A stretch of 64,000 nt of DNA from contig CAYXWO010000001.1 in the NCBI GenBank assembly GCA_964468825.1, positions 3,234 to 67,233 of the forward strand, in the 5' to 3' direction. This stretch comes from an uncultured Candidatus Saccharibacteria bacterium (GTDB taxonomy: Bacteria; Patescibacteriota; Minisyncoccia; Phycocordibacterales; UBA5272). The notes under the pieces are model-generated. The model made no database searches. It was not told the DNA's origin and saw only the letters and a list, made by a program, of their open reading frames with translations. Below, in pieces: positions 8,309 through 25,316 of this stretch; within the stretch, counting starts at the first letter, position 1, and each line of letters begins with the position of its first letter. The translations under genes and the position numbers were made by a program.

Positions 8309-8313
8309 GTAAT

Positions 8314-10399: not shown

Positions 10400-10689
10400 A
10401 GAGATCCATTTCTTTTCTGACGTGACGTGTCAGCCTGGCTCTAAACTATTCCAAGCTCAAGTAAAAGTCAAACGTCTAGACCCGCGTTCATAATGGAAAG
10501 AGATGAAGGAATATGTTAGAATTCGCGAATCAATAACTTCTAATTTATATTATTTATGTCACTCTCAATCGGCATGGAGCGAACACAAACCAACATTTCT
10601 TAAGTGTTGGAAATGAAAAACTTATACCGTTCCAGTTCAACATCAAGTTGCCTTTAAAATTAAATAGTTACGAGTAGGGGGGTAGGGCC

Positions 10690-11151
10690 ATGCTCTTTTC
10701 TAAGAAAACTCTTCAAAATATCCCTCACTGTTTCAAAGCGAGACCATTTTTAGAAATTGGTAATGTGCACTTTGATATACTTAGGATATACATGACAACA
10801 ATTAAGCAGAAAGTAGCACTAGAGAAACTAGTGGAAAACGGTGGTAACGTCACAAGAGCAATGATAGATGCTGGCTACTCAGAAGCAACAGCGAACAATC
10901 CCTCAAATTTGACTCATAGCGAGGGTTTTAGGTCTTTACTTAAGCAATATGGATTAGATGAAAGCTTAGTTGTTACGGCCCTTGTAGAGGATATTAAAGG
11001 TAAGCCATTGAATAGATCTAAGGAACTACTTCTTGCCTCAGAGATTTTAGGCATGAGAAAAAACGGAGCTCTCTCAATCAAAGTTCAAGATAATAAACCC
11101 GTAATTGTATATATGCCGCAGGTTCTCATCGAGAAGTTTCATCTTAATTAG
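10690..11151 (+). CDS. small-terminase-like HTH protein (Terminase_2 / SPP1 G1P-like 'AGYS' motif)
   Basis: 'LVENGGNVTRAMIDAGYSEATA' matches the TerS HTH (cf. SPP1 G1P 'LIDLNASRAAREAGYSPKTA'). Paralogous to the ORF at 19311-19826. Confidence 0.5.
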   Translation: MLFSKKTLQNIPHCFKARPFLEIGNVHFDILRIYMTTIKQKVALEKLVENGGNVTRAMIDAGYSEATANNPSNLTHSEGFRSLLKQYGLDESLVVTALVEDIKGKPLNRSKELLLASEILGMRKNGALSIKVQDNKPVIVYMPQVLIEKFHLN

Positions 11152-11300
11152 ACTCTTCTATTTTGATGTCTGTACACAGCATCCATAAGGCACAACAAAG
11201 CGTTTAACTCAGAGTAGGCTTTGTCGTTACTTATCTCAGTGCCATACTCTTGTCTGTAAATTTCCTTGTATCTCTCAATGTCTTTTTGAGCTATTTGCAT
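11148..11300 (-). CDS. small hypothetical ORF (50 aa), convergent with and stop-overlapping the TerS-like gene
   Basis: By-eye ORF MQIAQKDIERYKEIYRQEYGTEISNDKAYSELNALLCLMDAVYRHQNRRV. Below the track cutoff. Confidence 0.2.
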   Translation of the reverse strand: MQIAQKDIERYKEIYRQEYGTEISNDKAYSELNALLCLMDAVYRHQNRRV

Positions 11301-11376
11301 GTTATTTAAAAATTTATTATTTTGGCTATATTTTATGCTACTATATTAGAATCTAAAGACTCGTTTTAAAAGTAAA

Positions 11377-12789
11377 ATGACAAAAGAAGAAATAATTAAG
11401 AAGATAAAATACGGACTTGAAATAGCAAGTGAGCTTTCTGATCTTGAATTTAAAACAGCGACCAGCTCTATTCCAAATGATATCTGGCGAAGTATTTCAG
11501 CTTTTGCAAATCGAAGAGGTGGAGGCCTCATTGTCTTTGGAGTTGATGAGAGACAAAATGCAATCACTGGATGTGCAAATATTGATCAAATGCAAACAAA
11601 ACTCACAGAGATTTTTAATGACAAGATGAGTTTTATTTTGCGTCCTGAGTACCATGTAATCGATATTGATAATAAAACGATTCTTGCGGTAAATATTCCT
11701 GAGTGTCCAAAAGATTATATGCCTTGTTATTTTAAAAACGTAGGATTGCCCAACGGAGCATACATCAGAGAGGGGAATACGAGTAGAAAAATAACAGACA
11801 ACGAGTTTCGTACTTATGTTGCAACATCAAAAGAATTTCAATTTGATCTTTCCGAAGCCAGAGGGGCTAAGAGGGGTGATATTTCTGTAGATAAAGTCGA
11901 TGCGCTTTTACGGCAGAGTGAGTCTCAATTAAATAGGGGAGCTGATCACATTGTTAATGATTCTGTACTTGAAAATCTTGGAATAGTTTCTTTGTTCGAT
12001 GGTGAGTATAAGCCAACAATTGGGGGTTATTTAATTTTCGCAAAGGACATTCCTCAAAATAAAAGCCCTTATGATCGATATGCTGTGAGATGTATTCGTT
12101 ACATTGGTAGTGATCCTTCATCTGAGATAATTGATACTATTGATGTCGCCGGAACGCTTGATACTCAAATTGATGAAGCGTATAAATTTATCTTAAAAAA
12201 TATCTCTAAAAAAGCAGTCATTGTTGGAACTAAAAGAGTCGAGGGCTACGAGTATCCAGAGGCAGCTATTCGAGAACTTGTTGCTAATGCGGTTATACAT
12301 CGTGATTATAAAATTATTGAAACGTACACACAGATTAGAATTTTCCAGGATCGCATAGAAATTACTAATCCGGGATCGCTCCCGCCTGGAGTTAATGTTG
12401 ATAATCTTAAAGAAGCTCAGTTCAGTCGCAATTCAATGATTGCAGCAAGGTTGAAAGATATGAAATATCTTGAAGAGTACGGACGAGGTATTGATATTGT
12501 TGTTAAAAAAATGTCTGAATGGAGTTTGCCTTCACCTCTATTTAGAAATTCTGTAAACAGTTTTGAAGCGATACTCTTAGGTAATACTTATCAAGATATT
12601 AACGATAGACAAATAAAAATTATTGATGTTCTTTTGATTAAAGGTCGTTTGACTGCTGCTGACTGTTTGAAGATTCTAAAGGGAATACCTCGTGCGACAA
12701 TAAATGCAGATCTTAAAAAACTAAAAGACCTCGGTGTTATTGTCACAAAAGGTGCATCTGTGAACACGTATTACATGCTCGCTTTCTAG
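11377..12789 (+). CDS. Schlafen/AlbA_2 (divergent AAA) - HATPase_c_4 - wHTH protein ('RecG-like' transcriptional regulator family)
   Basis: N-terminal AlbA_2-like region, 'ELVANAVIHRDY' HATPase_c_4 motif, C-terminal HTH. Confidence 0.65.
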   Translation: MTKEEIIKKIKYGLEIASELSDLEFKTATSSIPNDIWRSISAFANRRGGGLIVFGVDERQNAITGCANIDQMQTKLTEIFNDKMSFILRPEYHVIDIDNKTILAVNIPECPKDYMPCYFKNVGLPNGAYIREGNTSRKITDNEFRTYVATSKEFQFDLSEARGAKRGDISVDKVDALLRQSESQLNRGADHIVNDSVLENLGIVSLFDGEYKPTIGGYLIFAKDIPQNKSPYDRYAVRCIRYIGSDPSSEIIDTIDVAGTLDTQIDEAYKFILKNISKKAVIVGTKRVEGYEYPEAAIRELVANAVIHRDYKIIETYTQIRIFQDRIEITNPGSLPPGVNVDNLKEAQFSRNSMIAARLKDMKYLEEYGRGIDIVVKKMSEWSLPSPLFRNSVNSFEAILLGNTYQDINDRQIKIIDVLLIKGRLTAADCLKILKGIPRATINADLKKLKDLGVIVTKGASVNTYYMLAF

Positions 12790-12993
12790 AAGCTTTTAGA
12801 AGCAATTTAAAAATGTATTGAAAACAAAGAGTTAATTATGCTTATTCTGGTCCTAATTATTTAGATGCGATTAGAAGCATTTCTTTCGGTCCAAAAATAA
12901 TCTAAAAAGTAAAAGGCACCCATTTAGGGTACCTCTCATGTCTAGTATTTACAGTTTACGCAACAGCGGTGCCTTAAATCAAATGGCAGGGAT

Positions 12994-13383
12994 TTAGATA
13001 ATTTCGATCAATTTAAGGAGTTCTTTCTCTCTTTCAGCTTTCAGTATTTGAGCACGCTTAGAAAGCTCTATGAGGGAGAATGGAGGTTTGACATTCATAT
13101 CCATTGTCTCCTTTGGTTTGCCTATTACTTGATTGAGGAGAAAAGCAGCGACTCTTGGGTCCGGTAATTGACGGTAGACAACCTTCTCTCCATTTTCATC
13201 CTCGGTCTCGTAGTAGGACCCTTTAGCAAGTTCAATCTGACCAGTCAAAATCGGCTCTAGTTCTTCAGCTATACGCGTAACAGCATATTTCCTCGCTTCC
13301 TCAGCTTTGATGCTTGCTAAGCCTCGTTTACGGCCCGCGCCAAGCCTTCTACCTCCTCGTGTCGTTGTTATCTCCATATCCAT
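12994..13383 (-). CDS. hypothetical protein with basic Gly/Arg-rich N-terminus (RGGRRLGAGRKRG)
   Basis: Complete ORF of host-like composition. The AT-hook-like N-terminus suggests DNA binding. Confidence 0.45.
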   Translation of the reverse strand: MDMEITTTRGGRRLGAGRKRGLASIKAEEARKYAVTRIAEELEPILTGQIELAKGSYYETEDENGEKVVYRQLPDPRVAAFLLNQVIGKPKETMDMNVKPPFSLIELSKRAQILKAEREKELLKLIEII

Positions 13384-13510
13384 ATTATATTACAAAATAA
13401 GGCGATTTTATAGCATAAAAGAATTGATTAAATCAAATAATCAAAATCTTTTAATTTAACAACATAAATAAATATTGCTATAATTTACCTTGATACATAA
13501 ATACTAAAAT

Positions 13511-13978
13511 ATGAAATTTGAGACCCCTAAATTTGAGACACCTAACTTTTTGAAAGAATTCACCATAAGTGAGGCACAGCAAGTGTCTGAGATTTTTAAA
13601 ACTAACCCACATGTTCGCTCTGTTAGTTTGATAGGAGCTGTAAAACAAACACAAAAAATGCACTCCCTGCGTTTTGTTATTGAAGTTGATAGTGATGAGT
13701 TGTTTCATAATTTCGCAGAAAGCTTTTCAAAAGAAAAAGGTGATGCAATTATTGCACCGGAGAGACGATTAGAAGCACTTTCACGCGTACTCGGAGACGA
13801 TTTACTATTTAAGATTGATGAGAGTTTTACTCATGATAAACATGCAGGAAATTTCATTGATGCAGTCATCGTTCCGCCAGGTTGGCAGTCAAAAATTGAC
13901 TTTGTTCAAAGCCGATTACCCTTTGACGATATAACGACAGCTGAACTTATTGATGCACTTAAACTGTCAGAATCATAA
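13511..13978 (+). CDS. hypothetical protein (155 aa); weak nucleotidyltransferase-like G[AS]...DxD pattern
   Basis: 'LIGAV...VIEVDSDE' only loosely resembles a minimal NTase motif. Confidence 0.4.
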   Translation: MKFETPKFETPNFLKEFTISEAQQVSEIFKTNPHVRSVSLIGAVKQTQKMHSLRFVIEVDSDELFHNFAESFSKEKGDAIIAPERRLEALSRVLGDDLLFKIDESFTHDKHAGNFIDAVIVPPGWQSKIDFVQSRLPFDDITTAELIDALKLSES

Positions 13979-14038
13979 TTAAGTGGAATTATTACCGAAC
14001 CTAGATTACCAATGCCTATTGACAAAACTATATAATGT

Positions 14039-14068
14039 GTGCTATAATAAAAAGAACAAAGCTCTTTA
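14039..14068 (+). promoter_or_regulatory. consensus sigma70 promoter TTGACA-18-TATAAT
   Basis: Perfect hexamers, then SD GGAGG and ATG at 14086. Confidence 0.4.
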
Positions 14069-14085
14069 ACTAACGGAGGTGTGTC

Positions 14086-14577
14086 ATGGAGGGAACTCCT
14101 TTGCTTATTTCGTATCTTAGCTTTTTCTTCCAAGCCTGGAAGAAAGCTTACAACCTCGGCTGGATATTTCACCGGATGGTGGAAGCTCACGGCATAGAGG
14201 TTGCGCTAGCCTTTTTTAAGGAGGCTGAAGCAGCAGGCTACCCACTGGTAGCGAAGGCTACTCGCGCGCACGCTGGTACTCCGTTCTTCTTGACGGTGGT
14301 CAACAAGAGGTTCTCTGATTGGGTGTTTGCAAAGACCCCAACAGAAGAAACTTTTGTGAAGAACGTTCTTGCGAACGCGCAAAGGCTTCAAGCCACAGAA
14401 GAGATGTGGGGTGCGGCCAGCAAGGAATGCGCAGAAGATCTGCGTCAACGTGGGTGGGAAGCACTTGATACCTTAGGTGGAAAGACCAAGGGGCTCAAGA
14501 TGAATCAGCTTCGCTACGATACTCGTGGGCGTAGGACCGGCAAGGGCGCACCAGAAAGAACCTGGGCAAAAAAATAA
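14086..14577 (+). CDS. hypothetical protein (163 aa), GC-rich cassette inside the island
   Basis: ~52% GC versus ~38% for neighbours, with its own promoter, SD and terminator. Confidence 0.45.
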   Translation: MEGTPLLISYLSFFFQAWKKAYNLGWIFHRMVEAHGIEVALAFFKEAEAAGYPLVAKATRAHAGTPFFLTVVNKRFSDWVFAKTPTEETFVKNVLANAQRLQATEEMWGAASKECAEDLRQRGWEALDTLGGKTKGLKMNQLRYDTRGRRTGKGAPERTWAKK

Positions 14578-14610
14578 GAAGATTGCAGTTTGCGCACTGC
14601 ATTCAGAGAA

Positions 14611-14638
14611 GTCGACCTGTCCCGGTCGGCTTTTTTTT
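14611..14638 (+). terminator. intrinsic terminator GTCGACC-tgtcc-CGGTCGGC+T8
   Basis: Hairpin followed by a T-run. Confidence 0.55.
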
Positions 14639-14677
14639 GTTACACTTTCAACATACTTAAGTTAAAATTATCTATCT

Positions 14678-17600
14678 ATGAACGACGAAGCACCTCGCCA
14701 CCCTTGGGGGTTTAGCGCTAACACAGAAAAGCCTCCAGTAGAATTAAGCGCTCTAGCTAAGGAGTGTGGTGTTTCTGAAAAGGAAATACGTGAAGTATTA
14801 ATAAAATTAGGATGTGCAAAGCCGGAGCGTAAAGATGTACTACGCCCGCGATCTGGTAAGCCTGCAATACGAAAATCGACCCTTACTTGCTTATCTGTAG
14901 ACGCAGAACAGGTGAGAAGATATTATAAAATCGAAAATGAATCCCCATCAGTAAATGAAAATGAAAAAGAGGTAACTCAAGATAACAAACCGCCTAAAAA
15001 CTGGCCTTCGCTCGGAAGATTAAGAATAAAATTGGGGCTTGAAAGAAGTGAAATTAGGTCTTGTCTTCATGAGGTGACACTATCTGGTTTGCGCTCTGGA
15101 TTAGCAAATACTCCATTTGGAGCTTTGGTGCAGAAAAGTACTTCAGAAATGACAGTTGAATATAATGGTGTCACTTATATTTCGCCAGAAGTTGCTGAAA
15201 GACTTACAGAGTTGTCTACAACAATTTTCAGAAAACGTGATGGAGGAAAGTATCTAGATGCTTCACAAGCAATTCAGGAGCTAGGACTCGCTGATGGTAA
15301 GCCAGAAGATGCGAATGAAAAATTAAAACAGGAAATAGACAATTTTCTACAAAAATATCCTTGGTTATCTAAGGAGATAGTTGAAAAAGCAGATATTGCT
15401 GGTGGTCCTGCTACAATATACTATTCAAGAGATTTGCTTTCTTTTATTCGTAAGATAAATGAAAGCGATAATAGCTTTGTGACTGCAACTGAAGATGTTC
15501 CGGAAGGGTATATATCTGAGCGAGACATAATAAACTCGTTAGAGCTATTTCCTTCTAAGTTAGAAGTACTTAAAAAGAAAGTTTTGACAGAAGTCACTCT
15601 AGAGAAACCTATTGTTGGACTTTTCAAGCCGGGGAGTAAAGCAAAAAAAATTGAATATTTTTATTCACCAGAGCTTTTTAAAAAAATTAGTGAACTAAAG
15701 ATTTTTGACGAATCTCTACGCGAAGAAACTCTCGACGAAAGTCAGGGAGAACTGATCGTATTTGATGTTGAAACAGAAACACCAGAAGGATATATTTCAA
15801 AAAGAGAGTGTATTTCTATACTGGACATAACCCCCGAAAAATTCGAGAGATTAGTCATGGAGGTGTCCCAGCATCATCCTGAATTTTCTCGCCCAACAGT
15901 AGCTATACCCAGAACAAATCGCTCATTGCGACCACGAATTTTTTATTCGCAAGAATTAATCAAAGCTATTTCTGAATTTAAGACAGCAAATGAAAAAGAC
16001 TCTCCAGTAGAAATAAAACAAGAGGCTATTCCAGAGGGTTATATATCTCTACTTGATTGCACTATTAGTTTAGGTATAAGCGCAAATAAAGTTCAACAGT
16101 TGGTAGATGAATGTCTTTATCTTCGACCAACACTAAAGCAAGAAGGGGTAATAAACAGAAGAAGAGGACAGTCTCGTGGCCTCAGTGTGTTTTACTCGCC
16201 TGAACTCGTGTCAGCAATAACTGAACTAAAACAAAAAAATGATAAACTTCAACGAGAAAAAATTGAAGATGCCCAGAGAATCCTAGAAGAAACAATAAAA
16301 TTAAAAGAAAGGCTAGCTTCTGTGCTCGATGATATAAGTCGAGGTTTGCCTGAAACCGCTCCCTTTAGGAGGGCTGTATCACTTTTCGGCGGAGCAAGAA
16401 CAATAGATCTTCTTAAAAAATTCTACCCCGAATTTGTAGAAATTCCAGCTCAATATATGCAAAAGGAGGTCGCTTCGTACTTAAGTGACTATATGGTTTC
16501 TCGTTCAGAAAATGTTATTGAAGACCTGGACGCAGCAGTACCCTTCCTTCATGAGAAAGTTTTTAGTGAGACCCTGTTTACTATCTTGAAAAATAACTGT
16601 GCGATCTACTATAGCAAAAAAAAGAGAGAGTCACGAGAGCGGACAGACCAGGAAATTCTAGATGAGTACTACTTAATATTGGAGCAAAAAGCTGAGTTAC
16701 TCAAGAGTAATGAACTTAGAGTGGTAGTTAAAGGCATTGAGGAATATATACAGTCATTACTTAATGATTTTCAAAAACCTGAAGCAATTGTCGATGAACT
16801 TAATGCTGGAAGAGAATTCCCTGACCTAAATCAAATTATTAATATCAAAGAGGTTGCAGATAATAGACATGTATTGATTGGAGATGAGATGGGAATGGGG
16901 AAAAGTGGGTCGGCTATTTTATCGAAAGAATACCTCGGAGTAAGTACCGCGATCGTCATTGCCCCAAGCAATGCAATTGATATGTGGAAAGAGTACTTAT
17001 CTGCTAACGTATCTCCATCTGGAAAGCAAGTCGGGTACTTTAAACCAGGGAAGGCACCTCGGGTTCTTGAAATTCAGAGTGTTGACGACTTAAGTAAAGC
17101 ACGAAGTCAGGAATACGATTATGTCCTTATATCTCACGATCGAATTAGTGAAGAACTAGCAACTAAATTAAGAGAGGTATCTTACGAGATGGTAATTGTT
17201 GATGAAGCGCATAAATTCAAAAATATTACTGGAGGCAAAAGATCTAACGCCTTGCTGGGCATGTTAGAGGATTGTGAAGATAGAGATACATACACAGTAC
17301 TCCTTTCGGGTACGCCAATTCCAAATAAAATTCGAGATATGGCTATAATTTTAAAATTATTATACCCAGACAGATTTGGGCATATGGATAACAACTTATT
17401 GGTTTCAAGTATTATTAGAGGAGATCTCACTGATTTGCGTGAGTTACTTCTATTAAGGACTCAGATGAAAAAACTATCTGAAAGTATTCAAATGCCGAAA
17501 AAAGAGGAACGGTTGGACTTTGTAACTTTATCTGAAGGAGAAAGGGAGCTTTATCAGGTAGTAATGGAAGATGATCAAATGAATTCCATGGAAAGGCTTT

Positions 17601-19261
17601 CTGCTTTACGTTTGTTTTGTTTAAACCCGAGGAAAGTCTTTCCAGATAGTAAGATGGTAGGTTCAAAAATTACTGAGGCAGAAAGTAGTATTGCTACTTT
17701 TTTTGAAACAAAAGATAAACTAGTTTTTTTTGTTAATGGGTATGTTTACGGAGTCATACGTGGCGAAAATTCAGTGTTATCTCAAATGAAAATGCCTGAA
17801 GGGGTTACGGTAAGAATTATTGATGGAGACACCTCACGAGAGGAGCGCCGTGAAATTGAACAAGAATTAAAATATACAAGTAATGGAAAGATTTTACTCG
17901 TGGTAAATGGTGGGGCCGCTGATGTTGCTGTCGATTTCTCTGCGGCAGAAGGGGTGCAATTTTACAATGAGCCTTGGACAAAATTTGATAAAATGCAACA
18001 GACATCGAGAGTTTATCGGCCAGGATTAAAACATGATATTGAAGTCGGAACATCGGTAACAAGGGGTTCTGTTGAGGAGGGGATGCATTATTATATTGAA
18101 ATGAAATACCGTGCCGTTGTAAAACTTCTTGAAGGGATACCTCTGTCAGAAATGGAAAAATCACTCCTTCTCCTAGATGAAAAGGCGTCAGATGTTGTTT
18201 CAGTTGATAAGGATTTTGGATTTGCTGAGGAGTGGCTCCAGACTCCGATGGGTAGACTTAACAGGTTTTCTAAAATGACGAAAGAAATCGGTGAAAAGGA
18301 ATTTGTTTCAAGATTTCTTCCAGAACATGGGGAGGCATACGCTTCTTTCTACGAAGAGTTGGAGACTCATAGTTTCGAAGCAAATACCGCTCGCTTTGTG
18401 GCTACTCTAATTGAAGAGTATCGAAAAGAAAAAGATCTTCCTGTTGATATAACTGTCTTGGATTTGGCATCTGGTCCAGAAATGTTACGAAAACGCATGC
18501 GAACTGAAACAAATGAAAATGTGTATAGCCTCGACATAAACCCAGAACACTTTAAAGGAAGAGGTGGTAAACAGGTGGTTGGAGGTCTTACTAAACTTCC
18601 ATTCCGTGATTCTTCAATAGACTATGTAAATTTATCTCACTCACTTCATTATTCGTCTTTTCGACCAGAAAAAGGAGATTATGAAAGACTGACTGTCTTA
18701 GCAGAGATTTCAAGAGTTCTTAAAGTTGGTGGCAGAGTCACGATTAATTTGGCGCATACTCAGAGCTTTAGAAGTCTGGAAAGGTTGGGTGAGATAGCAG
18801 ACGAAATGGGGCTAACAATCATCAATGCTAAAACTGGACTAGTTGTATCTGATAATAATTATATGTCACCATGTGTAACATTTGAAAAAGTAGAAGAGAT
18901 AGACCTGTCTTCGACATTGACTGAACTAAAATCTAGAAGAAGGTACACACTCTACGGATTACGTCTAGACACTCATCGGGCAACAAAAAAATTACATAGC
19001 ACTCAAAAAATCGCAAAGGATTTTTCTATCCATGGACAGACTATGGAAACGATTCTTAACAAGGAAGATATGGTTTTGCTAAGTGAACAAGAAGAAATAC
19101 AAAATGAGGGAGACAGACTTATAAAACAATATGGCGGAAGCGTAGCTTTGATTCCCAAAGAGGAAATTCAAGAACGAGGATTCTTACGCTACACTTCAGG
19201 TAATAAGAGCCGACTTGTAAAGAAAGGTAGTCATAGTAAGACCTTTATATATGTGAACTAA
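14678..19261 (+). CDS. giant multidomain protein: N-terminal tandem ~90-aa repeats + SNF2-family helicase + class I SAM-dependent methyltransferase
   Basis: SNF2 motifs GDEMGMGKS / IVDEAHKFKN / LLSGTPIPNK / QQTSRVYRPG. MTase motifs VLDLASGPE / LPFRDSSIDYV / LKVGGRVTI. Three clear 'PEGYIS...FYSPEL..I.ELK' repeats at aa ~275-520. Confidence 0.8.
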   Translation: MNDEAPRHPWGFSANTEKPPVELSALAKECGVSEKEIREVLIKLGCAKPERKDVLRPRSGKPAIRKSTLTCLSVDAEQVRRYYKIENESPSVNENEKEVTQDNKPPKNWPSLGRLRIKLGLERSEIRSCLHEVTLSGLRSGLANTPFGALVQKSTSEMTVEYNGVTYISPEVAERLTELSTTIFRKRDGGKYLDASQAIQELGLADGKPEDANEKLKQEIDNFLQKYPWLSKEIVEKADIAGGPATIYYSRDLLSFIRKINESDNSFVTATEDVPEGYISERDIINSLELFPSKLEVLKKKVLTEVTLEKPIVGLFKPGSKAKKIEYFYSPELFKKISELKIFDESLREETLDESQGELIVFDVETETPEGYISKRECISILDITPEKFERLVMEVSQHHPEFSRPTVAIPRTNRSLRPRIFYSQELIKAISEFKTANEKDSPVEIKQEAIPEGYISLLDCTISLGISANKVQQLVDECLYLRPTLKQEGVINRRRGQSRGLSVFYSPELVSAITELKQKNDKLQREKIEDAQRILEETIKLKERLASVLDDISRGLPETAPFRRAVSLFGGARTIDLLKKFYPEFVEIPAQYMQKEVASYLSDYMVSRSENVIEDLDAAVPFLHEKVFSETLFTILKNNCAIYYSKKKRESRERTDQEILDEYYLILEQKAELLKSNELRVVVKGIEEYIQSLLNDFQKPEAIVDELNAGREFPDLNQIINIKEVADNRHVLIGDEMGMGKSGSAILSKEYLGVSTAIVIAPSNAIDMWKEYLSANVSPSGKQVGYFKPGKAPRVLEIQSVDDLSKARSQEYDYVLISHDRISEELATKLREVSYEMVIVDEAHKFKNITGGKRSNALLGMLEDCEDRDTYTVLLSGTPIPNKIRDMAIILKLLYPDRFGHMDNNLLVSSIIRGDLTDLRELLLLRTQMKKLSESIQMPKKEERLDFVTLSEGERELYQVVMEDDQMNSMERLSALRLFCLNPRKVFPDSKMVGSKITEAESSIATFFETKDKLVFFVNGYVYGVIRGENSVLSQMKMPEGVTVRIIDGDTSREERREIEQELKYTSNGKILLVVNGGAADVAVDFSAAEGVQFYNEPWTKFDKMQQTSRVYRPGLKHDIEVGTSVTRGSVEEGMHYYIEMKYRAVVKLLEGIPLSEMEKSLLLLDEKASDVVSVDKDFGFAEEWLQTPMGRLNRFSKMTKEIGEKEFVSRFLPEHGEAYASFYEELETHSFEANTARFVATLIEEYRKEKDLPVDITVLDLASGPEMLRKRMRTETNENVYSLDINPEHFKGRGGKQVVGGLTKLPFRDSSIDYVNLSHSLHYSSFRPEKGDYERLTVLAEISRVLKVGGRVTINLAHTQSFRSLERLGEIADEMGLTIINAKTGLVVSDNNYMSPCVTFEKVEEIDLSSTLTELKSRRRYTLYGLRLDTHRATKKLHSTQKIAKDFSIHGQTMETILNKEDMVLLSEQEEIQNEGDRLIKQYGGSVALIPKEEIQERGFLRYTSGNKSRLVKKGSHSKTFIYVN
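15493..16245 (+). repeat. three (possibly four) diverged tandem ~250-285-nt intragenic repeats encoding 'PEGYIS' modules
   Basis: Repeat units start near 15500, 15783 and 16032 (ccgGAAGGgTATATatct / ccaGAAGGaTATATttca / ccaGAGGGtTATATatct). Confidence 0.5.
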
Positions 19262-19310
19262 AAAGAGGCCTTATAGATTGAATACCAAGAGAAGTATTTA
19301 CATCTACGAA

Positions 19311-19826
19311 CTATTTCTCAACTATAATTCTCATACCTGTTATAGGCTCTACGAAACGATTCGTCTGTTCAATTTTTGCAGTTGAGTAATTACCTTTTAG
19401 CTTATGGGCCATATCAAGAGCAGCTTTAATCGCTTGAGTGTCTGGCACAGCATAGAAGGCGAGTTTTGCATTCCCAGAGGGGCGAATCGAAATGACGTAA
19501 AGACCACAGGATTCGAGATGTTCTCGTATCTCAGTATCTTCAAGATTTTTATCAAAAGAGATATAGGTAATATGCTTTTGGTTAAATAGTCTCTTGTGTT
19601 GGTCCATGATGTACTCATTCGGAAGAAACTCTTCTAAAAGAGTGGTCCAGTTCTCAGAGCTTGTGAGCTTACTTGGTGTTTTAATCGTTGCTTCTGAGTA
19701 ACCTGCTGTACGCATAGCCATAGTCACAGACCCACCATTTTCCACTAAAGCTTTCATTGCCTTCCTCTGTTTCGTTGTAGCCTTTGCCTTAATGATTTTA
19801 ATTGACTTTGTATCACTATTTACCAT
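19311..19826 (-). CDS. small-terminase-like HTH protein (paralog of 10690-11151), inverted orientation
   Basis: 'ALVENGGSVTMAMRTAGYSEATIKTPSKLTSSE' is ~50% identical to the ORF A N-terminus over ~50 aa. Nucleotide identity is also visible (ttagtggaaaatggtgg vs ctagtggaaaacggtgg). Confidence 0.5.
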   Translation of the reverse strand: MVNSDTKSIKIIKAKATTKQRKAMKALVENGGSVTMAMRTAGYSEATIKTPSKLTSSENWTTLLEEFLPNEYIMDQHKRLFNQKHITYISFDKNLEDTEIREHLESCGLYVISIRPSGNAKLAFYAVPDTQAIKAALDMAHKLKGNYSTAKIEQTNRFVEPITGMRIIVEK

Positions 19827-19900
19827 ACTTTAATGGTATCAAATTATTATATGAATCGCACTTTTTGAAAAGGTCTTACCAGAGTGGTACAATTCTAGAT

Positions 19901-20893
19901 ATGGAAAAGGACCCTCTTCTCACGGCAAAACTTATCTACTTTTGTGAAAAAATTTTGGAGTCAAAGCGTGATGGGGACCAATTTACTTCTGTTAGCTATG
20001 CTCCGCTTCTTGGCATGACCAGAGATGAGGTTTCTGACTTGATTCATCTTCTTAAAACTAAAAAACTTGCAAAGTGGGAATATGTCATCAAAACAGTTCA
20101 AGACGATGAGGGGCGGGACGTTGAGGTTGATTTTGATTCGTTGAGTTTTAACAAACGAGGGATTAAGGAGTATGTGAAAAAATTAAAGAAAGGTCTTAAG
20201 GAAAGTCCCACTATTAAACGAGAAGAGTTGTTGCGAATCAGAGAGCAGGTCAACTCTATATTTAACAAGAAAGCATGTATGCGAGTGCTTGCTAAGTTTT
20301 ATTCTACGGATGATCTTTATATCTATTTTCACTATGATAAGTATGTTCTTGTAGACCTACTTCTGAGCCATGCATACTCGAATAAAGTGTCACTTGCAGA
20401 AGTGCTTGCTGAGTTCCTCAATCCCGTCTACTACAACCTTGGTGAAGAAGGAAAATCAGAGCAGTTATTTCACTTCATCGATAAAGTCTTTTCTTTATGT
20501 GCAACTGAAAAAGATTATAATGAGTGGCAAGAAAAAGCATCAAAGTATATTACCACTATACAAAAGAAAATGAGCTCAAAAAAGAATAGTCATAATGAGA
20601 TTGAAATCGTTGGTGGAAATGTTAATTTTAAAGATATCACAATGCCGATTGAGAGAGGCCATAAAAAGATGTTTATTGAGCTCAACAAAACTCCTCAGAT
20701 TAATAGAAATGGAAAACTATTTAAGCAAGGTGAAAAGGTCCATAGAAGTGTGTTGCAAAGCGTCGCATATCGAGATGAAGACTCATTCAGAGCAGCGCTA
20801 GCCAAACTTAGAACAAAACTTAGGGAATCTGGTCTCCCTGTTGAGATTGTGAATGATACTACTAATCACTATATGCTAACGATCAATTATTAA
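19901..20893 (+). CDS. putative transcriptional regulator with C-terminal OmpR/PhoB-type winged helix
   Basis: C-terminus 'ALAKLRTKLRESGLPVEIVNDTTNHYML' fits the trans_reg_C pattern (LRxKL...P..I.TVRGxGY). Start moved to the ATG at 19901 to avoid overlap with the divergent gene. Confidence 0.45.
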   Translation: MEKDPLLTAKLIYFCEKILESKRDGDQFTSVSYAPLLGMTRDEVSDLIHLLKTKKLAKWEYVIKTVQDDEGRDVEVDFDSLSFNKRGIKEYVKKLKKGLKESPTIKREELLRIREQVNSIFNKKACMRVLAKFYSTDDLYIYFHYDKYVLVDLLLSHAYSNKVSLAEVLAEFLNPVYYNLGEEGKSEQLFHFIDKVFSLCATEKDYNEWQEKASKYITTIQKKMSSKKNSHNEIEIVGGNVNFKDITMPIERGHKKMFIELNKTPQINRNGKLFKQGEKVHRSVLQSVAYRDEDSFRAALAKLRTKLRESGLPVEIVNDTTNHYMLTINY

Positions 20894-20998
20894 AGCGAGT
20901 AATTTGAGTAGTACCTAGTAGTACTATCAATGGTACTTATGACATTCTTTCCAGCTATATAGCTCAAAGCTATCCACAGAAAAGTATGTATATATACG

Positions 20999-21025
20999 AA
21001 AAAGCCTAATATCTAAGGCTTTTTC
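20999..21025. terminator. bidirectional hairpin AAAAAGCCT-aatatct-AAGGCTTTTT
   Basis: Perfect stem flanked by A and T runs. Confidence 0.55.
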
Positions 21026-21044
21026 TTTATGCGAAAGTCGTCCC

Positions 21045-21239
21045 ATGGACGATAAGAAAGCGCAAAAAGAAATCAAGGTGAGTTATCAGGAGGTATCTGA
21101 TGACCCGGAAGTAATCAATCAAAAAATTGAGGAGGCTTTTGATGCGCTATTTGAAATCGTCTATAAAAATTATTGGTTAGACATTCAAAACTATGGCACA
21201 ACAAAACAAAGACGAGATCTTGGCGAAGAAGCTGAGTGA
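21045..21239 (+). CDS. small hypothetical protein (64 aa), paralog of the next ORF
   Basis: Shares an 'h..YxK/N-YWL' motif with the ORF at 21193-21384. The two overlap by 47 nt in different frames. Confidence 0.3.
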   Translation: MDDKKAQKEIKVSYQEVSDDPEVINQKIEEAFDALFEIVYKNYWLDIQNYGTTKQRRDLGEEAE

Positions 21240-21384
21240 CGTATTGGCAAAGCATTACGAAAAGTATTGGTTAGCTGAAAAGAGAGGTAAGGTAAATTAT
21301 CAAGAGATAAACGATACGCTTGTGGTACATATCAAGCAAGTACTTACGTTTTACGAGAATAGTAAACGAGCCTATGGAAAATAA
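21193..21384 (+). CDS. small hypothetical protein (63 aa), translationally coupled to Prim-Pol gene
   Basis: Its stop overlaps the Prim-Pol ATG (tATGgaaaaTAA). Confidence 0.3.
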   Translation: MAQQNKDEILAKKLSDVLAKHYEKYWLAEKRGKVNYQEINDTLVVHIKQVLTFYENSKRAYGK

Positions 21385-23431
21385 ATTCAAAACGGCAGCA
21401 CTTAACTATCACAAGAAAGGGTTCTCGGTTATCCCGCTAAAGCCACAAAGTAAGATTCCAATGCTTACGCACTGGCAACAGTATTCAACTACAAAATCGA
21501 CAGTTGAGGAAATTGAAAAGTGGTGGACCGAGACACCGAATGCAAATATCGGGGTTGTATGTGGTCCAGCTGGTGGAAGATTTTTGTTCGTTGTCGATCA
21601 AGATGTGCTCAAAGACGAAAACAAGATTCCTATGCTGGATGAAAATGGAGACTTCAAGGAGCGTGGTGATATACGAGGTTGCCCTCCGACAGTTCTTCAA
21701 ACAAGTGGTAGTGGCGGCAAGCAGATGTTCTATTTTGCACCAAAGGGATATGAGGTTGGTAATCGTATTGGTGTACGCCGTCTTGTGGATGTGAAGGGAC
21801 TTAATGGTCAGGTGGTTGTACCACCATCAATTCATCCCAATGGGAAGGAGTACTCGTGGGATTGGGAAGACCTTGATCCAGCTAGCATAACCGAGTTTCC
21901 TAAAGAGGATCTAGACGCATTCTTGGGAGTGAGTAGTGACGGCAAAGATTCAGTTGATAAAGTTCTCGCTGGCGTTCCTGTAGGAGAAGGGAAAAGGCAT
22001 ATTGGCATCGCACAGGTCGCTGGATACTACTTGAGAAAAGCAAAGTCTCCCGCAGAAATAGATATGGCAAGAATAGCTGTCTATGCATGGGATAAGATAG
22101 TGAATAAGTCTCCTGAGCCAGAAATGGAGAGACGGAAGGAGATCGATAACGTGTTTGACGGTATTCTCAAACTAGAGCAAACAAAGAGAGGTAAGCAAAC
22201 TTCCTCATCAGGTAAAGCTGAAAAGAAATTCGTTGAGCCTAAGTTGTGGCAAATCAGTGATATCTTAACGACTGATTTCGGAGAGGAGGAGTGGGCAGTA
22301 GAAAATCTCATATCTAAGCAAGGTATCACAGCTCTTTCAGGAAATCCTGGCGACTTCAAAACATGGCTAACGATTCATACAGCGCTCTGTGTCGTCCGTA
22401 ACGTGCCGGTGTTCGGTAAGTTTAAAGTGACACAAGGCAATGTGCTCATTATAGATGAAGAGGACCATATCAGGTTACTTAAAAAGAGACTGGAGCTTCT
22501 TGGTGCCAAAGAGAGTGACGAAATTCATTATCTCTCTCAAGGTGGCATAAAAGTTGATAACGAAGATGTGCTTGAATTCATTCTTAGGATTATCGAGGAC
22601 AAGGATATTAAGCTCGTGATACTCGACTCACTTGTGAGAATTCATGATCAAGAAGAGAACGATGCGAGCGGTATGTCGACTGTGTTTAGCAACTTACAGA
22701 AATTTATCACCGCTGGGGCATCAATACTCTTTACTCATCATCATAGAAAGCAAACTGGGTTCGGTAGTAGCAATGCAGGGCAGAGCATGAGAGGTTCTTC
22801 GGATATATTGGCCGCTGTGGACTGTCACATTATGATTGAAAGAAAGCGTGAAGAGGAACACAGACTCATCATAAAGCAGACAAAGTTAAGACAAGCTGAG
22901 CTATTACCAGCGTTTGAACTCAGTGTCACTCAGGGTGAGCATGGTCCATCGGGTTTCGAGTATATCGGTGATTATGATGAGCGTAGAAATAAGGCTGAAG
23001 AGGTAGCTGAAGCAATCATACTATTGCTCTCAGACGGCATGAAGAATCGCTCAGAGTTGCAAGAAATACTTATTGATGAATACGGTAAGACGGTAATTGA
23101 TGATGGCATAAAAATCGCACAAGAGATGGAAAAGATTGAACGTGTACCGAAAGAAGAGATACCAAAGGCTGACAGGAAGAAGGCCTACTATAGAGTACCA
23201 GGAGTCACGAGTGCCCACATTCAAAATGATCTTCCTGTTTCCTTAACATATATAGATGACGGGAAGCAGGAAGATGAATACGCGTACTTAGTTGAAAGTG
23301 AAGGAGAGCTAAGTGTATGTTGTAAAGCTCCGATGTATGGAGGCGCCCAGTGTAGCGCATGTGGCGCAGATGGTAAGTTCTATACCGACGAGGAGATGGA
23401 GCAAAAGGTTCTTAACTTCCAGAATAGCTAG
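21374..23431 (+). CDS. replication protein: bifunctional primase-polymerase (Prim-Pol) N-domain + RepA/AAA_25-like ATPase + C-terminal Cys cluster
   Basis: 'GFSVIPL..K.P...W', 'ANIGVVCG', 'VVPPSIHPNGKEYSW', then a RecA-fold region (VLIIDEEDH, LVILDSL) and CC..C..C at the C-terminus. Confidence 0.7.
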   Translation: MENKFKTAALNYHKKGFSVIPLKPQSKIPMLTHWQQYSTTKSTVEEIEKWWTETPNANIGVVCGPAGGRFLFVVDQDVLKDENKIPMLDENGDFKERGDIRGCPPTVLQTSGSGGKQMFYFAPKGYEVGNRIGVRRLVDVKGLNGQVVVPPSIHPNGKEYSWDWEDLDPASITEFPKEDLDAFLGVSSDGKDSVDKVLAGVPVGEGKRHIGIAQVAGYYLRKAKSPAEIDMARIAVYAWDKIVNKSPEPEMERRKEIDNVFDGILKLEQTKRGKQTSSSGKAEKKFVEPKLWQISDILTTDFGEEEWAVENLISKQGITALSGNPGDFKTWLTIHTALCVVRNVPVFGKFKVTQGNVLIIDEEDHIRLLKKRLELLGAKESDEIHYLSQGGIKVDNEDVLEFILRIIEDKDIKLVILDSLVRIHDQEENDASGMSTVFSNLQKFITAGASILFTHHHRKQTGFGSSNAGQSMRGSSDILAAVDCHIMIERKREEEHRLIIKQTKLRQAELLPAFELSVTQGEHGPSGFEYIGDYDERRNKAEEVAEAIILLLSDGMKNRSELQEILIDEYGKTVIDDGIKIAQEMEKIERVPKEEIPKADRKKAYYRVPGVTSAHIQNDLPVSLTYIDDGKQEDEYAYLVESEGELSVCCKAPMYGGAQCSACGADGKFYTDEEMEQKVLNFQNS

Positions 23432-23453
23432 TTTATAAGGTGGATAATGCTTT

Positions 23454-23482
23454 TGACATTTAAGAACAATTATGAGTATAAT
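23454..23482 (+). promoter_or_regulatory. consensus promoter TTGACA-17-TATAAT, 6 nt before ATG (leaderless xis)
   Basis: Hexamers at 23454-59 and 23477-82. ATG at 23489. Confidence 0.5.
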
Positions 23483-23488
23483 TAATAT

Positions 23489-23701
23489 ATGGAATTTTAC
23501 ACAAGAAACGAGGTTGCGAAATACTTTAGAGTGCATGAGAGAACAATTGACCGCTGGATAGAGAGCGGTAGTTTGAAGGGGTATAAGTTTGGTGATGGTA
23601 AAACAGCTACGCTTCGTATACCAAAAGGAGAGGTCGAAAGGTTTTTAGAAGATCACAGAAGTGATAAAAAACAAGATGGAAAAAATAAATCAACAAAATA
23701 A
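23489..23701 (+). CDS. excisionase/Xis-family HTH DNA-binding protein (candidate RDF)
   Basis: 70 aa. 'NEVAKYFRVHERTIDRWIESG' is an HTH_17-like helix. Confidence 0.55.
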   Translation: MEFYTRNEVAKYFRVHERTIDRWIESGSLKGYKFGDGKTATLRIPKGEVERFLEDHRSDKKQDGKNKSTK

Positions 23702-25316
23702 ACTCATAGCAATATATGGGCGTGTCTCAACTTCCAATCAGGAAAATGAAGGGACCATTGAAACACAGCTCTCTGCAGTGAATGATCATGCAGAAAAGAA
23801 TGGCTATGTCATCGTGCAAAAATATATTGATGAAGGATGGAGCGGCGATAATATCGTAAGACCTGCGCTTGATCAGCTTCGCATGGATGCAAAGAAAAAG
23901 AATTGGGAAGCAGTTCTTATATATGATCCGGACAGACTTGCTAGACGTGCTGCGTGGCAAGAGGTTGTAACAGAGGAATTGCATGAGCTAGGTATCGACG
24001 TTCTTTATGTTACTGTACCACAAGCTAAGACTGATGAAGATAAAATCATGTCAAAAATGAGAGGTGTTTTTTCTGAATATGAAAGAATGAAGATCAAGGA
24101 AAGGTTTCGTCTAGGGAAGGTACGTAAGGCGCGAGAAGGTCATATCATTGCAACAGAGGCACCGTATGGATATACATTCATTACAAGGACGACTGAAAGG
24201 CAGGGGTACTATGAAATTAATGAAAAAGAATCTCTCGTCGTACAGAGTATCTTTTCTTGGGTGGGTAATGATGGCCTTACGCTTCGTGGCGTTGTGAGAA
24301 AACTTCAAGAGCTAGGTATTGCTCCGCGTAAAAGTAAGCGTGGTGTATGGAGTACGAGCACACTTAGTAATCTGCTCCGTAACAAAACATACATCGGCGA
24401 AGCTCACTATGGTGCCTCATATGCTGTGGTTCCAGAAAATCCACTTAAAGATGAGAAGTACAAGAAGATCAAGAAAACGAGCAGAAAAAGCAAACCTGAA
24501 AGCGAGTGGATAAAAATGGCATCACCGAAGATCATCGATGAAGAGCTATTTATAAAAGTCCAAGAACGACTCAAATCAAACTTTCAAGCATCAATGCGAA
24601 ATACTAAAAATGAATATCTACTGTCTCATAGAATTTGGTGTCCGTGTGGTTCACGAAGAGCAGGTGAAGGACCTCAACACGGCAAACATCTCTACTATAG
24701 ATGTACAAGTCGTGTAAAAAGCTTTCCAGTTCCTTCTAGCTGTGAAGAAAAGGGTTTAAATGCTAGAATAGTCGATACTGTGGTCTGGCAAAGAATGGTA
24801 GAACTGATGAGTTCACCTAAGCTTATGCTTAAAGAAGCTGAGCGCTGGACTAAAAGTAAAAACAAAACGATAACTGACTTTTCGGTTATCAATATAGAAG
24901 AAGCTAAGAAAGAAATTTCTAAACTCAAAGAGCAAGAAGACCGTTTTGCTAAGGCGTATGGCGCAGGACTCATTACACTTGATAAGTTAGGTGAGTACAC
25001 AGAATCTCTCAAGGAGAAAATTGCGTTACTAGATACTCAGATCACAAAGGCTTTAGACGAGCGGTCCAAAAGAAATGAAGCTCCGCTTCCTGAGATAAGT
25101 GACGTTAAGCAATTCTCTGAGGCAACATCGCACGTGCTCTCTAAGTTAAAGTTTGAGGAAAAGCAGGTAGTCGTTCGAAACACTATTACTAAAATTGTGG
25201 GCACAAGGTCGGAATTATCAATTTATGGTTTTATACCAGTAACATCAAACATCAATGTCTTCTCTCTCCATCGGCATCGTAGGTCTTCCAAACGTGGGCA
25301 AGTCTACACTATTTAA
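23676..25316 (+). CDS. large serine recombinase (integrase)
   Basis: Resolvase catalytic 'IAIYGRVSTSNQ', recombinase domain, Zn-ribbon 'CPCG...YYRCTS', coiled-coil. The last ~20 codons overlap the ychF start. Confidence 0.85.
   Translation: MEKINQQNKLIAIYGRVSTSNQENEGTIETQLSAVNDHAEKNGYVIVQKYIDEGWSGDNIVRPALDQLRMDAKKKNWEAVLIYDPDRLARRAAWQEVVTEELHELGIDVLYVTVPQAKTDEDKIMSKMRGVFSEYERMKIKERFRLGKVRKAREGHIIATEAPYGYTFITRTTERQGYYEINEKESLVVQSIFSWVGNDGLTLRGVVRKLQELGIAPRKSKRGVWSTSTLSNLLRNKTYIGEAHYGASYAVVPENPLKDEKYKKIKKTSRKSKPESEWIKMASPKIIDEELFIKVQERLKSNFQASMRNTKNEYLLSHRIWCPCGSRRAGEGPQHGKHLYYRCTSRVKSFPVPSSCEEKGLNARIVDTVVWQRMVELMSSPKLMLKEAERWTKSKNKTITDFSVINIEEAKKEISKLKEQEDRFAKAYGAGLITLDKLGEYTESLKEKIALLDTQITKALDERSKRNEAPLPEISDVKQFSEATSHVLSKLKFEEKQVVVRNTITKIVGTRSELSIYGFIPVTSNINVFSLHRHRRSSKRGQVYTI

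Follow-up and report, generated by a model that had tools for sequence, protein, structure and literature searches.

A 64,000-nucleotide stretch of contig CAYXWO010000001.1, from an uncultured Candidatus Saccharibacteria bacterium (hereafter the window), contains a block of accessory genes that is certainly a site-specific integrative island in the chromosome of a bacterium of the candidate phyla radiation (CPR, Patescibacteria). As comparison with empty-site contigs shows, the mobile island occupies positions 10576-25277 (14,702 bp) and sits inside codons 5-8 of ychF. It encodes a large serine recombinase (LSR), a Xis-type helix-turn-helix (HTH) protein and a primase-helicase replication protein, and is probably self-replicating. 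From its sequence it also appears to hold two terS genes, for the small subunit of a phage terminase, from distinct phage TerS lineages and without terL, the gene for the large subunit. As a candidate for the first phage satellite of the CPR group the island is good but unproven; a preliminary description of the same DNA, made from the sequence alone, had likewise proposed a candidate phage satellite.

The boundaries were obtained from genomes in which the island is absent. Exact look-up of the DUF360 protein encoded to its left yielded loci from other assemblies (L003, GCA_020049755.1; L006; L007), and in L003 and L007 a single 138-aa minus-strand gene separates the DUF360 gene from ychF. The block is missing from both, and hence is not a syntenic feature of all relatives, a possibility that had been raised earlier. 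By blastn, positions 1-2514 of L003 correspond to 8045-10575 of the window (89.4% identity) and positions 2498-3683 to 25261-26453 (85.3% identity); L007 has the same break point. A four-way alignment (A1) of these two empty sites with both window junctions gave the attachment (att) sites listed in Table 1. Since the 8-bp core ATCGGCAT (10568-10575 and 25270-25277) is the sole identical block of attL and attR, the element measures 14,702 bp. The preliminary description had given about 15 kb, with a left boundary anywhere from 9750 to 10690; the value of 10576 falls within this range and refines it. It had also recognised the accessory block between the DUF360 gene and ychF, although its gene list passed over the two largest cargo genes (11377-12789 and 14678-19261). 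Because the att sites delimit the element completely, no structural genes lie hidden outside the block, and any capsid or TerL gene just outside the window, which the preliminary description would have taken as the mark of an ordinary prophage, cannot belong to the element.

The island repairs the gene that it enters. Its right end brings a replacement start, so that ychF is not disrupted, and the YchF of the window begins with MSSLSIGIVG, compared with MSLSIGIVG at the empty sites; at attL an open reading frame (ORF) of 15 codons is left over (MSLSIGMERTQTNIS, then a stop). In the inferred attP, perfect inverted arms of 6 bp enclose a centre of 4 bp (CTCCAT-CGGC-ATGGAG). Serine integrases cut at a central dinucleotide, and by analogy the crossover would be located within the core ATCGGCAT. 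After integration, the original ychF promoter-like site would point into attL and TerS1, and read-through transcription into the re-started ychF likely comes from the perfect sigma-70 consensus that precedes the HTH_17-LSR pair. The promoter scan gave no overall enrichment (33 sites against 36.3 expected), and the two perfect 12/12 sites alone are noteworthy. The GC content is 0.389 within the element and 0.434 in the remaining window, 13 ORFs take up 91% of the element, and the window is matched at 100% identity by Logan contigs of two runs. As a separate observation, orf330 contains at 20642-20655 an inverted copy (ATGCCGATTGAGAG), exact over 14 nt, of the attB/attL half-site CTCTCAATCGGCAT; at 76% identity the match can be prolonged to 29 nt. 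Chance alone would give about one pair of 14-mers of this kind in 15 kb, and this pair coincides with the att core; the copy could be a pseudo-att site, an LSR-binding site or a coincidence.

The recombinase has the three Pfam domains expected from its earlier annotation as an LSR (Resolvase 8.5e-29, Recombinase 1.4e-19, Zn_ribbon_recom 3.4e-06). These domains, together with att sites that have only a short core in common, are what characterises the LSR of an integrative element. Its best NCBIfam matches are CcrB (5.7e-35), CcrC and XisF, all below the cutoffs (121 vs 900 bits). The LSR ORF crosses attR, with the core at codons 537-539 of 551 (counted from GTG 23661), such that its final 13 sense codons and stop are host ychF DNA; reconstruction of the ORF in the circular form would extend it to 572 aa. 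The small HTH_17 protein directly upstream, which had likewise been described as Xis-type, is a candidate recombination directionality factor and/or activator on the basis of its family. It is kept in this position in L011, L108, L113, L114 and 11 of the contigs L115-L126 from the Joint Genome Institute (JGI).

This LSR clade occurs at ychF in at least nine other contigs, namely L113, L114 and seven JGI contigs; the ychF-targeting relatives include JAIPIK010000005.1 and SRR28495928_13096. The LSRs of L113 and L114 are 69% and 60% identical to that of the window and overlap ychF genes whose products are about 85% identical to the window's YchF; in the JGI contigs the LSRs are 56-58% identical and ychF overlaps the 3' end of each. 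Among 122 YchF homologs, 103 start with MSLSIGIVG and five with MSSLSIGIVG, the non-standard N-termini (homologs P0214-P0284) being MSSLSIGIVG, MSTKLAIGIVG and MSHSSLAIGIVG. Such variants can be understood as scars of insertion and therefore predicted occupied ychF sites. Both loci that were checked for this (ychF at L113 10001-11101 and at L114 10001-11107) had an HTH_17 gene and an LSR gene overlapping the ychF start.

The replication protein is the predicted fusion of a Prim-Pol domain (2.1e-31) with a RepA-like AAA_25 ATPase (9.8e-27), as Pfam bears out; it has a C-terminal Cys cluster, and PHROG primase and helicase families agree with the assignment. Homologs number 175 at E < 1e-20, and those with a taxon label all come from metagenome-assembled genomes of CPR bacteria. 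In L105 and L106 they adjoin an LSR, with GmrSD and methylase cargo nearby. The rightward operon is headed by orf330, a possible regulator or origin-binding protein with homologs in the same position in related elements. It had been called an OmpR-type winged HTH (wHTH) regulator, for which we found no Pfam match at E <= 0.01 and only faint wHTH hints (ScpB 0.077); its single-sequence AlphaFold2 (AF2) model was unusable, with a predicted local distance difference test (pLDDT) score of 45, and searches of PDB with the sequences of orf330 and orf129 gave nothing meaningful. No convincing iterons, origin or pac site came out of scans for repeats and tandem repeats, which gave only chance-level pairs and a 20-nt motif in three copies. 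The motif (AGATGCGATTAGAAGCATTT; 12788-12807, 12863-12882 and 13761-13780) is found around convergent gene ends, from the Schlafen gene to orf129 and orf155, and might serve as a binding site, origin or pac element, or be due to chance.

Central to the satellite reading are the two TerS-like genes. Their products are paralogs, as had been claimed before (57% identity over 51 aa of the HTH region, E 4e-17), a value at which chance similarity was rejected; the start of TerS1 had been set at 10690, while alignment A2 of the family places the true start at M35, position 10792 (MTTIKQK...). TerS1 matches Terminase_2 (PF03592) at E 0.04, with 15.0 bits against a cutoff of 26.1 bits and over profile positions 2-34 only; TerS2 has no match to this profile, and the phrog_51 terS match of the TerS-like ORFs is at 2e-3. 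Within the family of 39 members, whose alignment A2 displays a conserved HTH and helical core, 21 match Terminase_2 (best E 2.8e-3) and 26 match phrog_51 terS (best E 1.3e-6), all below threshold. A profile search of PDB pointed to the HTH of SF6/SPP1-type TerS (2cmp, 4zc3, 3zqp) with E-values of 0.05-0.1. The AF2 model of TerS1 (pLDDT 81) suggests a G1P-type N-terminal HTH DNA-binding domain: its top nine PDB fold hits are all small terminases, though with weak E-values; Foldseek aligns it to 4zc3 and 2cmp with TM-scores of 0.70-0.72, a root-mean-square deviation of 1.8 Å and a probability of 0.96-0.97 (SF6 DNA-binding domain, TM 0.72), and nearly all of its named BFVD fold hits are small terminases. 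The helices at 44-85 in the monomer model would be compatible with a ring-forming oligomerisation core. No library scores the two proteins above threshold; the identification as TerS rests on gene context and fold, and gene context is the strongest evidence.

In L012, a homolog 54% identical overlaps the start of a Terminase_3 gene that is followed by portal, protease and capsid genes, and TerS homologs are directly upstream of TerL in L012, L013, L014, L015 and others. IMG/VR contains 141 TerS-like relatives, of which 80 loci were kept. An ORF of at least 250 aa begins at the TerS-like stop in 64 of the 80, and 15 of the 20 such ORFs tested in Pfam are TerL (Terminase_3, Terminase_6N or GpA_ATPase). 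An iterative search located TerL in 78/80 of these viral loci and a serine recombinase in 0/80. Thus neither TerS-like ORF turned out to belong to a non-terminase HTH family, an outcome that the preliminary description had left open: the library matches, sub-threshold as they are, are to Terminase_2 and phrog_51. Among 185,579 species-representative genomes the family occurs in 12, and in these 12 loci TerL is found once and a serine recombinase seven times, which makes the distribution sharply bimodal. Eleven of the genomes are CPR (seven Saccharibacteria/Saccharimonadales) and one is a binned DPANN archaeon. The YchF of the window is 94% identical to a protein labelled Candidatus Parcubacteria, and the remaining named close YchF homologs are all CPR as well (Paceibacterota, Pacebacteria, Gracilibacteria); both the YchF homologs and the distribution of the TerS family thus indicate that the host is a CPR bacterium, in line with the genome type assumed earlier.

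The two genes appear to have separate origins. The closest homologs of TerS1 (66-69% identity, full length) are all in islands of the same layout with swapped modules, and its nearest phage relative, in L013, is 66% identical over 90 aa and has a Terminase_6N TerL downstream. TerS2 has as its nearest relative of any kind a phage TerS, that of L045 (48.6% identity over 138 aa; phmmer 7e-43), after which comes a Terminase_6N TerL of 702 aa; elsewhere, for example in L058, TerS2-like genes precede a GpA_ATPase TerL. The doubled terS is not unique to the window, since the Curtissbacteria locus L101 carries two TerS paralogs (8364-8753 and 9962-10483), 1.2 kb apart and beside a GajA (Gabija) ATPase (9e-156). 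The DPANN case is a TerS2-like gene at 1699-2250 of L104, a 3.3-kb contig binned as Candidatus Aenigmarchaeum, which may be mis-binned or may reflect a cross-domain occurrence. The 101-kb phage contig L012 (Logan SRR31327558_1) has a GC content of 0.556, Mu-like head genes and Lsr2, an actinobacterial-type nucleoid protein. This actinobacterial trait may be worth noting next to the genome occurrences of the TerS family in CPR; Saccharibacteria live on Actinobacteria.

The variable left half of the island seems to carry defence-type cargo, to judge from its protein families. The Schlafen protein, a putative nucleic-acid sensor or defence-type protein, gave PADLOC matches to the Schlafen-type regions of pAgo and Aga models. 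The 1527-aa protein combines an SNF2/DEAD helicase core (about residues 710-1150; SNF2-rel_dom 1.7e-21, Helicase_C 4.2e-07) with a class-I S-adenosylmethionine (SAM) methyltransferase (about 1260-1355; Methyltransf_11 1.1e-09), and residues 1-680 are without an assigned domain. Its matches to ZorD, DrmD and DpdE are generic SNF2-level ones far under the NCBIfam cutoffs, and those in PDB are eukaryotic SNF2 remodellers. When this protein and the replicase were compared with GenBank phages by tblastn, only distant matches (21-30% identity) to generic helicases and primases were obtained. As the preliminary description had stated, capsid, portal, TerL, tail, lysis, relaxase and type IV secretion system (T4SS) families are absent from all 13 ORFs (Pfam, PHROGs, NCBIfam, PADLOC).

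The mosaic backbone recurs in related elements. L113 has homologs of orf330, orf64 and orf63 combined with a D5_N/DUF5906 replicase and a type III restriction enzyme. In L011 and L108, defence genes are followed by TerS, further genes, a 241/274-aa protein, a 63-aa protein, an AAA_25 replicase, HTH_17 and LSR. The order in L110 is an orf330 homolog (4e-54), a 65-aa gene, a 702-aa Toprim_2 replicase, LSR, DUF3800, a TerS gene whose product is 69% identical to TerS1, HEPN_AbiU2 and a 378-aa gene. L110 is circular and measures 8,832 bp; its ends overlap by 30 nt, and contigs of two other runs cross the junction at 100% identity (L110/L111/L112 are Logan SRR28494071, SRR28494068 and SRR28494094). 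This sister element was found on 21 contigs of at most 10 kb, and chromosomal flanks were absent from the three of them that were read. In L093, L097, L099 and L102, and also in L009, an LSR lies 0.2-3.4 kb downstream of the TerS-like gene. PADLOC recognised HEC-01 A+B (4e-145, 5e-79), a type III restriction enzyme (3e-294) and GajA (9e-156) as sister-island cargo, and the HEC-01, type III restriction and Gabija genes hold the position equivalent to that of the cargo in the window island.

Table 1. Features of the ychF island and its borders (window coordinates; a slash in a sequence marks the junction).
Feature	Position	Strand	Basis and remarks
DUF360/Phage_holin_4_2 gene	9396-9749		Pfam; host side, left of element
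ychF promoter-like site, TGGAAA-17-TAGAAT with TG	10494..10522	+	consensus scan; placed relative to original ychF ATG by sequence
attL	10556..10577	+	original ychF start codon and codons 1-7 (ATGTCACTCTCAATCGGCAT); core at 10568-10575; alignment A1, blastn
attL, sequence read			...CTCTCAATCGGCAT/GGAGCGAAC...
attL junction, longer read			...ATGTCACTCTCAATCGGCAT/GGAGCGAACAC...
TerS1, 119 aa	10792..11151	+	N-terminal HTH and helical core; first gene within attL; family alignment A2, gene context, fold
Schlafen AlbA_2 + HATPase_c_4 protein, 470 aa, C-terminal wHTH	11377..12789	+	Pfam 9.4e-20 and 4.1e-22; phrog_12156 3.3e-60
orf129, basic N-terminus (RGGRRLGAGRKRG)	12994..13383	-	no significant match in Pfam, PHROGs, PADLOC, NCBIfam, PDB
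promoter-like site near orf155	13456-13484		promoter scan, 11/12
orf155	13511-13978	+	no family match in Pfam, PHROGs, PADLOC, NCBIfam
promoter-like site near orf163	14019-14048		promoter scan, 12/12
orf163	14086-14577	+	no family match in Pfam, PHROGs, PADLOC, NCBIfam
SNF2 + Helicase_C + Methyltransf_11 protein, 1527 aa	14678..19261	+	Pfam
TerS2, 171 aa, divergent from orf330	19311..19826	-	paralogy; nearest relative a phage TerS
promoter-like site upstream of orf330	19865-19893		promoter scan
orf330, conserved backbone protein heading rightward operon	19901..20893	+	homologs in same position: L110 (4e-54), L113 (5e-79)
orf64, small backbone gene 5' of replicase	21045-21239	+	orf64 and orf63: homologs in L113, L011, L108, L106
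orf63, small backbone gene 5' of replicase	21193-21384	+	see orf64
Prim-Pol::AAA_25 replication protein (RepA/DnaB-like ATPase), 685 aa	21374..23431 (ORF from 21320)	+	Pfam
perfect sigma-70 consensus, TTGACA-18-TATAAT	23453..23482	+	promoter scan, 12/12; precedes HTH_17-LSR pair
HTH_17 protein (Xis/AlpA/MerR-type), 70 aa	23489..23701	+	Pfam 6.6e-12; PHROG 66 'excisionase and transcriptional regulator' 9e-11
LSR, 546 aa from ATG 23676	23676..25316 (ORF from GTG 23661)	+	Pfam
attR	25255..25277	+	element-supplied ychF start (ATGTCTTCTCTCTCC) and core at 25270-25277; host DNA after 25277
attR, sequence read			...TCTCTCTCCATCGGCAT/CGTAGG...
attR junction, longer read			...TCTTCTCTCTCCATCGGCAT/CGTAGGTCTTCC...
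host ychF, re-started by element	25255..26355	+	Pfam YchF
attB (empty sites)			ATGTCACTCTCAATCGGCAT/CGTAGG; ychF codons 1-8; alignment A1
attB, inferred, longer read			...ATGTCACTCTCAATCGGCATCGTAGGTCTTCC...
attP, inferred			...TCTTCTCTCTCCATCGGCATGGAGCGAACACAAACC...

With respect to how the island moves, the best-supported mechanism, to which we give about an even chance, is that it spreads as a phage satellite by terS hijacking, a proposal made by analogy. As far as the protein families allow, the LSR would cut within the 8-bp core with HTH_17 as directionality factor and excise the island as a circle, which Prim-Pol::AAA_25 would then copy. As in phage-inducible chromosomal islands (PICIs), TerS1 and TerS2 would recruit the TerL of a helper phage to island DNA; the island would be packaged into helper capsids and injected into new cells, where the LSR would integrate it at the conserved 5' end of ychF.

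A number of observations weigh against this mechanism. The mobile island and its orphan terS stand as first proposed, but IMG/VR scans with the replicase and the LSR and a JGI search for attP turned up neither a helper phage nor an excised junction or an encapsidated copy. In the IMG/VR scans, which used single queries, there were no close relatives of either protein, and the exact search of JGI metagenome contigs with the inferred 31-nt attP junction gave 0 matches, a weak negative, as the source runs (SRR12762285 and SRR12762287) are not JGI ones. Both TerS-like proteins are under every curated threshold. The island TerS1 clade resembles the L013 TerS over the N-terminal 90 aa only and has a C-terminal tail of its own; the C-terminal region of TerS often contacts TerL, and coupling to a helper motor is thus not assured. 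TerS2, divergent from the replication operon, is in a repressor-like position. No gene for capsid morphogenesis, size redirection or packaging interference was recognised with Pfam, PHROGs and NCBIfam, the 129-, 155- and 163-aa ORFs being unassigned. In the other ychF-targeting relatives (L113, L114, L115-L125), terS was not detected in the available upstream sequence of at most 10 kb, and terS therefore behaves as an accessory module, much as it does among tycheposons, and is not a universal backbone gene. Finally, the L110 circle fits a plasmid-like lifestyle equally well.

Such a lifestyle is possible, if on the doubtful side. The island would then be an integrative, plasmid-like defence island independent of phage capsids, alternating between a chromosomal and an episomal state by means of its LSR and replicase and spreading by natural transformation, vesicles or cell contact; its TerS proteins would be decoys or regulators acting against phages, to the benefit of host or island, and would bind pac DNA or titrate TerL to abort packaging. 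This would agree with the free 8.8-kb circle of L110 and its 21 contigs, none above 10 kb, with the wide occurrence in CPR of the replicase and LSR backbone without terS (L105-L107, L113-L125), with a neighbourhood rich in defence genes, and with the way in which the island TerS1 clade keeps a phage-like HTH while its C-terminus diverges; natural competence is reported for Saccharibacteria, according to an excerpt of PMC10187176. However, PICI-type satellites are defined by just such an orphan terS in the company of integrase and replicase genes (PMC10085698), two terS lineages in 14.7 kb would be costly if they were decoys only, and terS and LSR co-occur in at least five small islands (L009, L093, L097, L099, L102) that would need a helper because no replicase is detected in them. 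Their tight linkage, at 0.2-3.4 kb in these same islands, could also be taken to mean that the TerS-like proteins were co-opted from phage TerS as DNA-binding accessories of the LSR, with a directionality or architectural role, or as the island repressor, in which case TerS2, divergent from the orf330-replicase-xis-int operon, would be an Stl/CI-like master repressor. The 74-bp divergent intergenic region between TerS2 and orf330, with promoter-like sites on both strands, fits this idea, as does the fact that the HTH part alone matches TerS models. We nonetheless regard it as improbable: an HTH_17 Xis-type gene is already directly upstream of the LSR in the window and 15 related loci, the 80 phage loci are never linked to a serine recombinase whereas 78 are linked to TerL, and the gene upstream of orf330-like genes varies, with unrelated 378-443-aa minus-strand genes in L110, L011 and L108.

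That the island might be an integrative mobilisable element (IME), moved by a conjugative T4SS encoded elsewhere, was the fallback of the preliminary description. The element is indeed small and has a recombinase and a replicase but no transfer genes of its own, and an excerpt of bioRxiv 10.1101/2025.01.22.634366 reports a Patescibacteria T4SS homologous to monoderm conjugation machinery. Positive evidence did not emerge, though: no ORF matches a relaxase, a coupling protein or any other MOB/T4SS family (Pfam, PHROGs, NCBIfam), and the two terS genes would be left unexplained, which makes this explanation very unlikely in our judgement. As for phage remnants, an ordinary prophage was rejected, given that no head, tail or lysis modules are inside the att-delimited element. 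A decayed prophage that has lost its structural genes would account for the phage-type genes (LSR, Xis-like HTH, primase, terS) but is scarcely credible for an element with precise att sites, intact LSR, replicase and terS ORFs and a coding density of 91% without pseudogene debris, the more so as independent contigs are 100% identical and sister elements repeat the compact architecture with different cargo, none of them with structural genes.

Some observations concern the window outside the island. An Rfam scan of the whole window gave tRNA-Tyr alone, with no RNA feature at the element, and an rRNA- or tRNA-linked island was rejected, the nearest tRNA, at 6835, being unrelated to the element. 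The GC content reaches 0.50-0.53 at 1-2000 and 29001-30000, against a background of about 0.43; these stretches have no Rfam match and are thus not rRNA. Stretches of low GC (0.36-0.385) at 62001-64000 and 42001-43000 could be a sign of further acquired DNA.

Phage satellites influence phage-host dynamics and are carriers of defence genes, and the CPR are a gap in their known diversity: nearly all known examples come from Proteobacteria and Firmicutes (PMC10085698), those of DPANN symbionts were first proposed in 2025, and our full-text literature searches returned no paper joining phage satellites with Saccharibacteria or CPR. It is conceivable, at somewhat less than an even chance, that the CPR harbour a satellite class of their own, consisting of small LSR-borne islands with orphan terS and defence systems that target and repair conserved housekeeping genes, for instance at the 5' end of ychF. 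If the satellite mechanism is true, two terS genes from phage lineages with different TerL types could let the island ride two helpers, nested parasitism would gain a further layer (a satellite exploiting a phage that infects an episymbiont living on a host bacterium), and bacteria with rare classical plasmids and integrative and conjugative elements (ICEs) would have a route of gene transfer. The islands would then reveal a path by which defence genes and other cargo pass between ultra-small bacteria that depend on a host, and would be natural compact site-specific vectors, made up of an LSR with a 40-50-bp attB in a universally conserved gene and a replicon. Saccharibacteria have become genetically tractable only recently. 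Even if the island is not a satellite, the set of att sites defined here (attB, attP, attL and attR), from an LSR clade that operates in diverged CPR hosts, is of use, and so is the restoration of the target start by the element as an example of gene-preserving insertion.

It remains to compare the island with known systems. On the definitions and five core components of PICIs given in PMC10085698, its predicted genes comprise four of the five components and none of the 'forbidden' structural genes, which would correspond to 'Type B' by composition. Like PICIs (SaPIs and the EcCICFT073 type), it measures about 15 kb and has an integrase at one end (the LSR at the right end here), a neighbouring HTH protein of Xis/AlpA/MerR type (HTH_17, 6.6e-12) that may act in excision or as an activator, a primase-replicase module, an orphan terS without terL, structural or lysis genes, an att site of its own, and cargo of the accessory and defence kinds; no gene for a tail, holin, portal or connector protein was recognised among its 13 ORFs. 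An Stl-like repressor was not recognised in the element. It differs from PICIs in using an LSR instead of a tyrosine integrase (the authors of SatelliteFinder consider serine and tyrosine recombinases exchangeable), in having two terS from different lineages, in the lack of a recognisable capsid-morphogenesis, cpm or ppi gene, in TerS proteins below all known PICI, PHROG and Pfam family thresholds, and in its CPR host, as > 99.9% of detected PICIs are in Proteobacteria or Firmicutes (PMC10085698).

The PICI-like elements (PLEs) of Vibrio cholerae are satellites of about 17-18 kb with an LSR, some of them inside the protein-coding gene vca0581 (PMC9410903), and form a narrow, homogeneous Vibrio family. 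They share with the island an LSR as integrase and insertion within a protein-coding gene; the parallel drawn in the preliminary description is valid for the recombinase type only. No shared proteins were detected in a comparison by family matches, the island replicase is Prim-Pol::AAA_25 and not a RepA_N-type initiator, and neither a nuclease family, as for the NixI-like protein, nor a capsid-scaffold family was matched in the element. Likened by description, the tycheposons of Prochlorococcus (bioRxiv 10.1101/2020.12.28.424599) are also a linked family of small integrative, replicative elements with swapped modules in a streamlined small-genome host without classical gene-transfer routes. 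A few use LSRs, and a subset (about 15%) is PICI-like with terS or a major capsid protein gene while others carry cargo. However, most are tRNA-targeting and use tyrosine recombinases, and the PICI-like ones were never seen with extra cargo, whereas the present element pairs terS with large cargo.

The minimalist satellites of Vibrionaceae (PICMIs; PMC10803314) resemble it in their reduced gene content, the lack of capsid-remodelling genes, their defence cargo and integration in or beside a conserved housekeeping gene, and the small CPR islands with TerS and LSR (L009, L093, L097, L099, L102) are similar to this minimalist grade; PICMIs, however, have a site beside fis and three core excision and replication proteins, of which there is no sign in the CPR islands. 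The SCCmec Ccr and fdxN-element XisF islands are LSR-borne, site-specific and devoid of transfer genes as well, being inserted within a conserved housekeeping gene or at its end, but have no replicase or terS module, and the window LSR scores far below the cutoffs of their families. The architecture is thus a variant of the PICI/PLE/tycheposon theme and not a new principle; what is new here is the host group, an LSR clade with ychF as the gene that it targets and repairs, the presence of two terS genes, and the clean dichotomy by which one TerS family is linked either to TerL or to an LSR.

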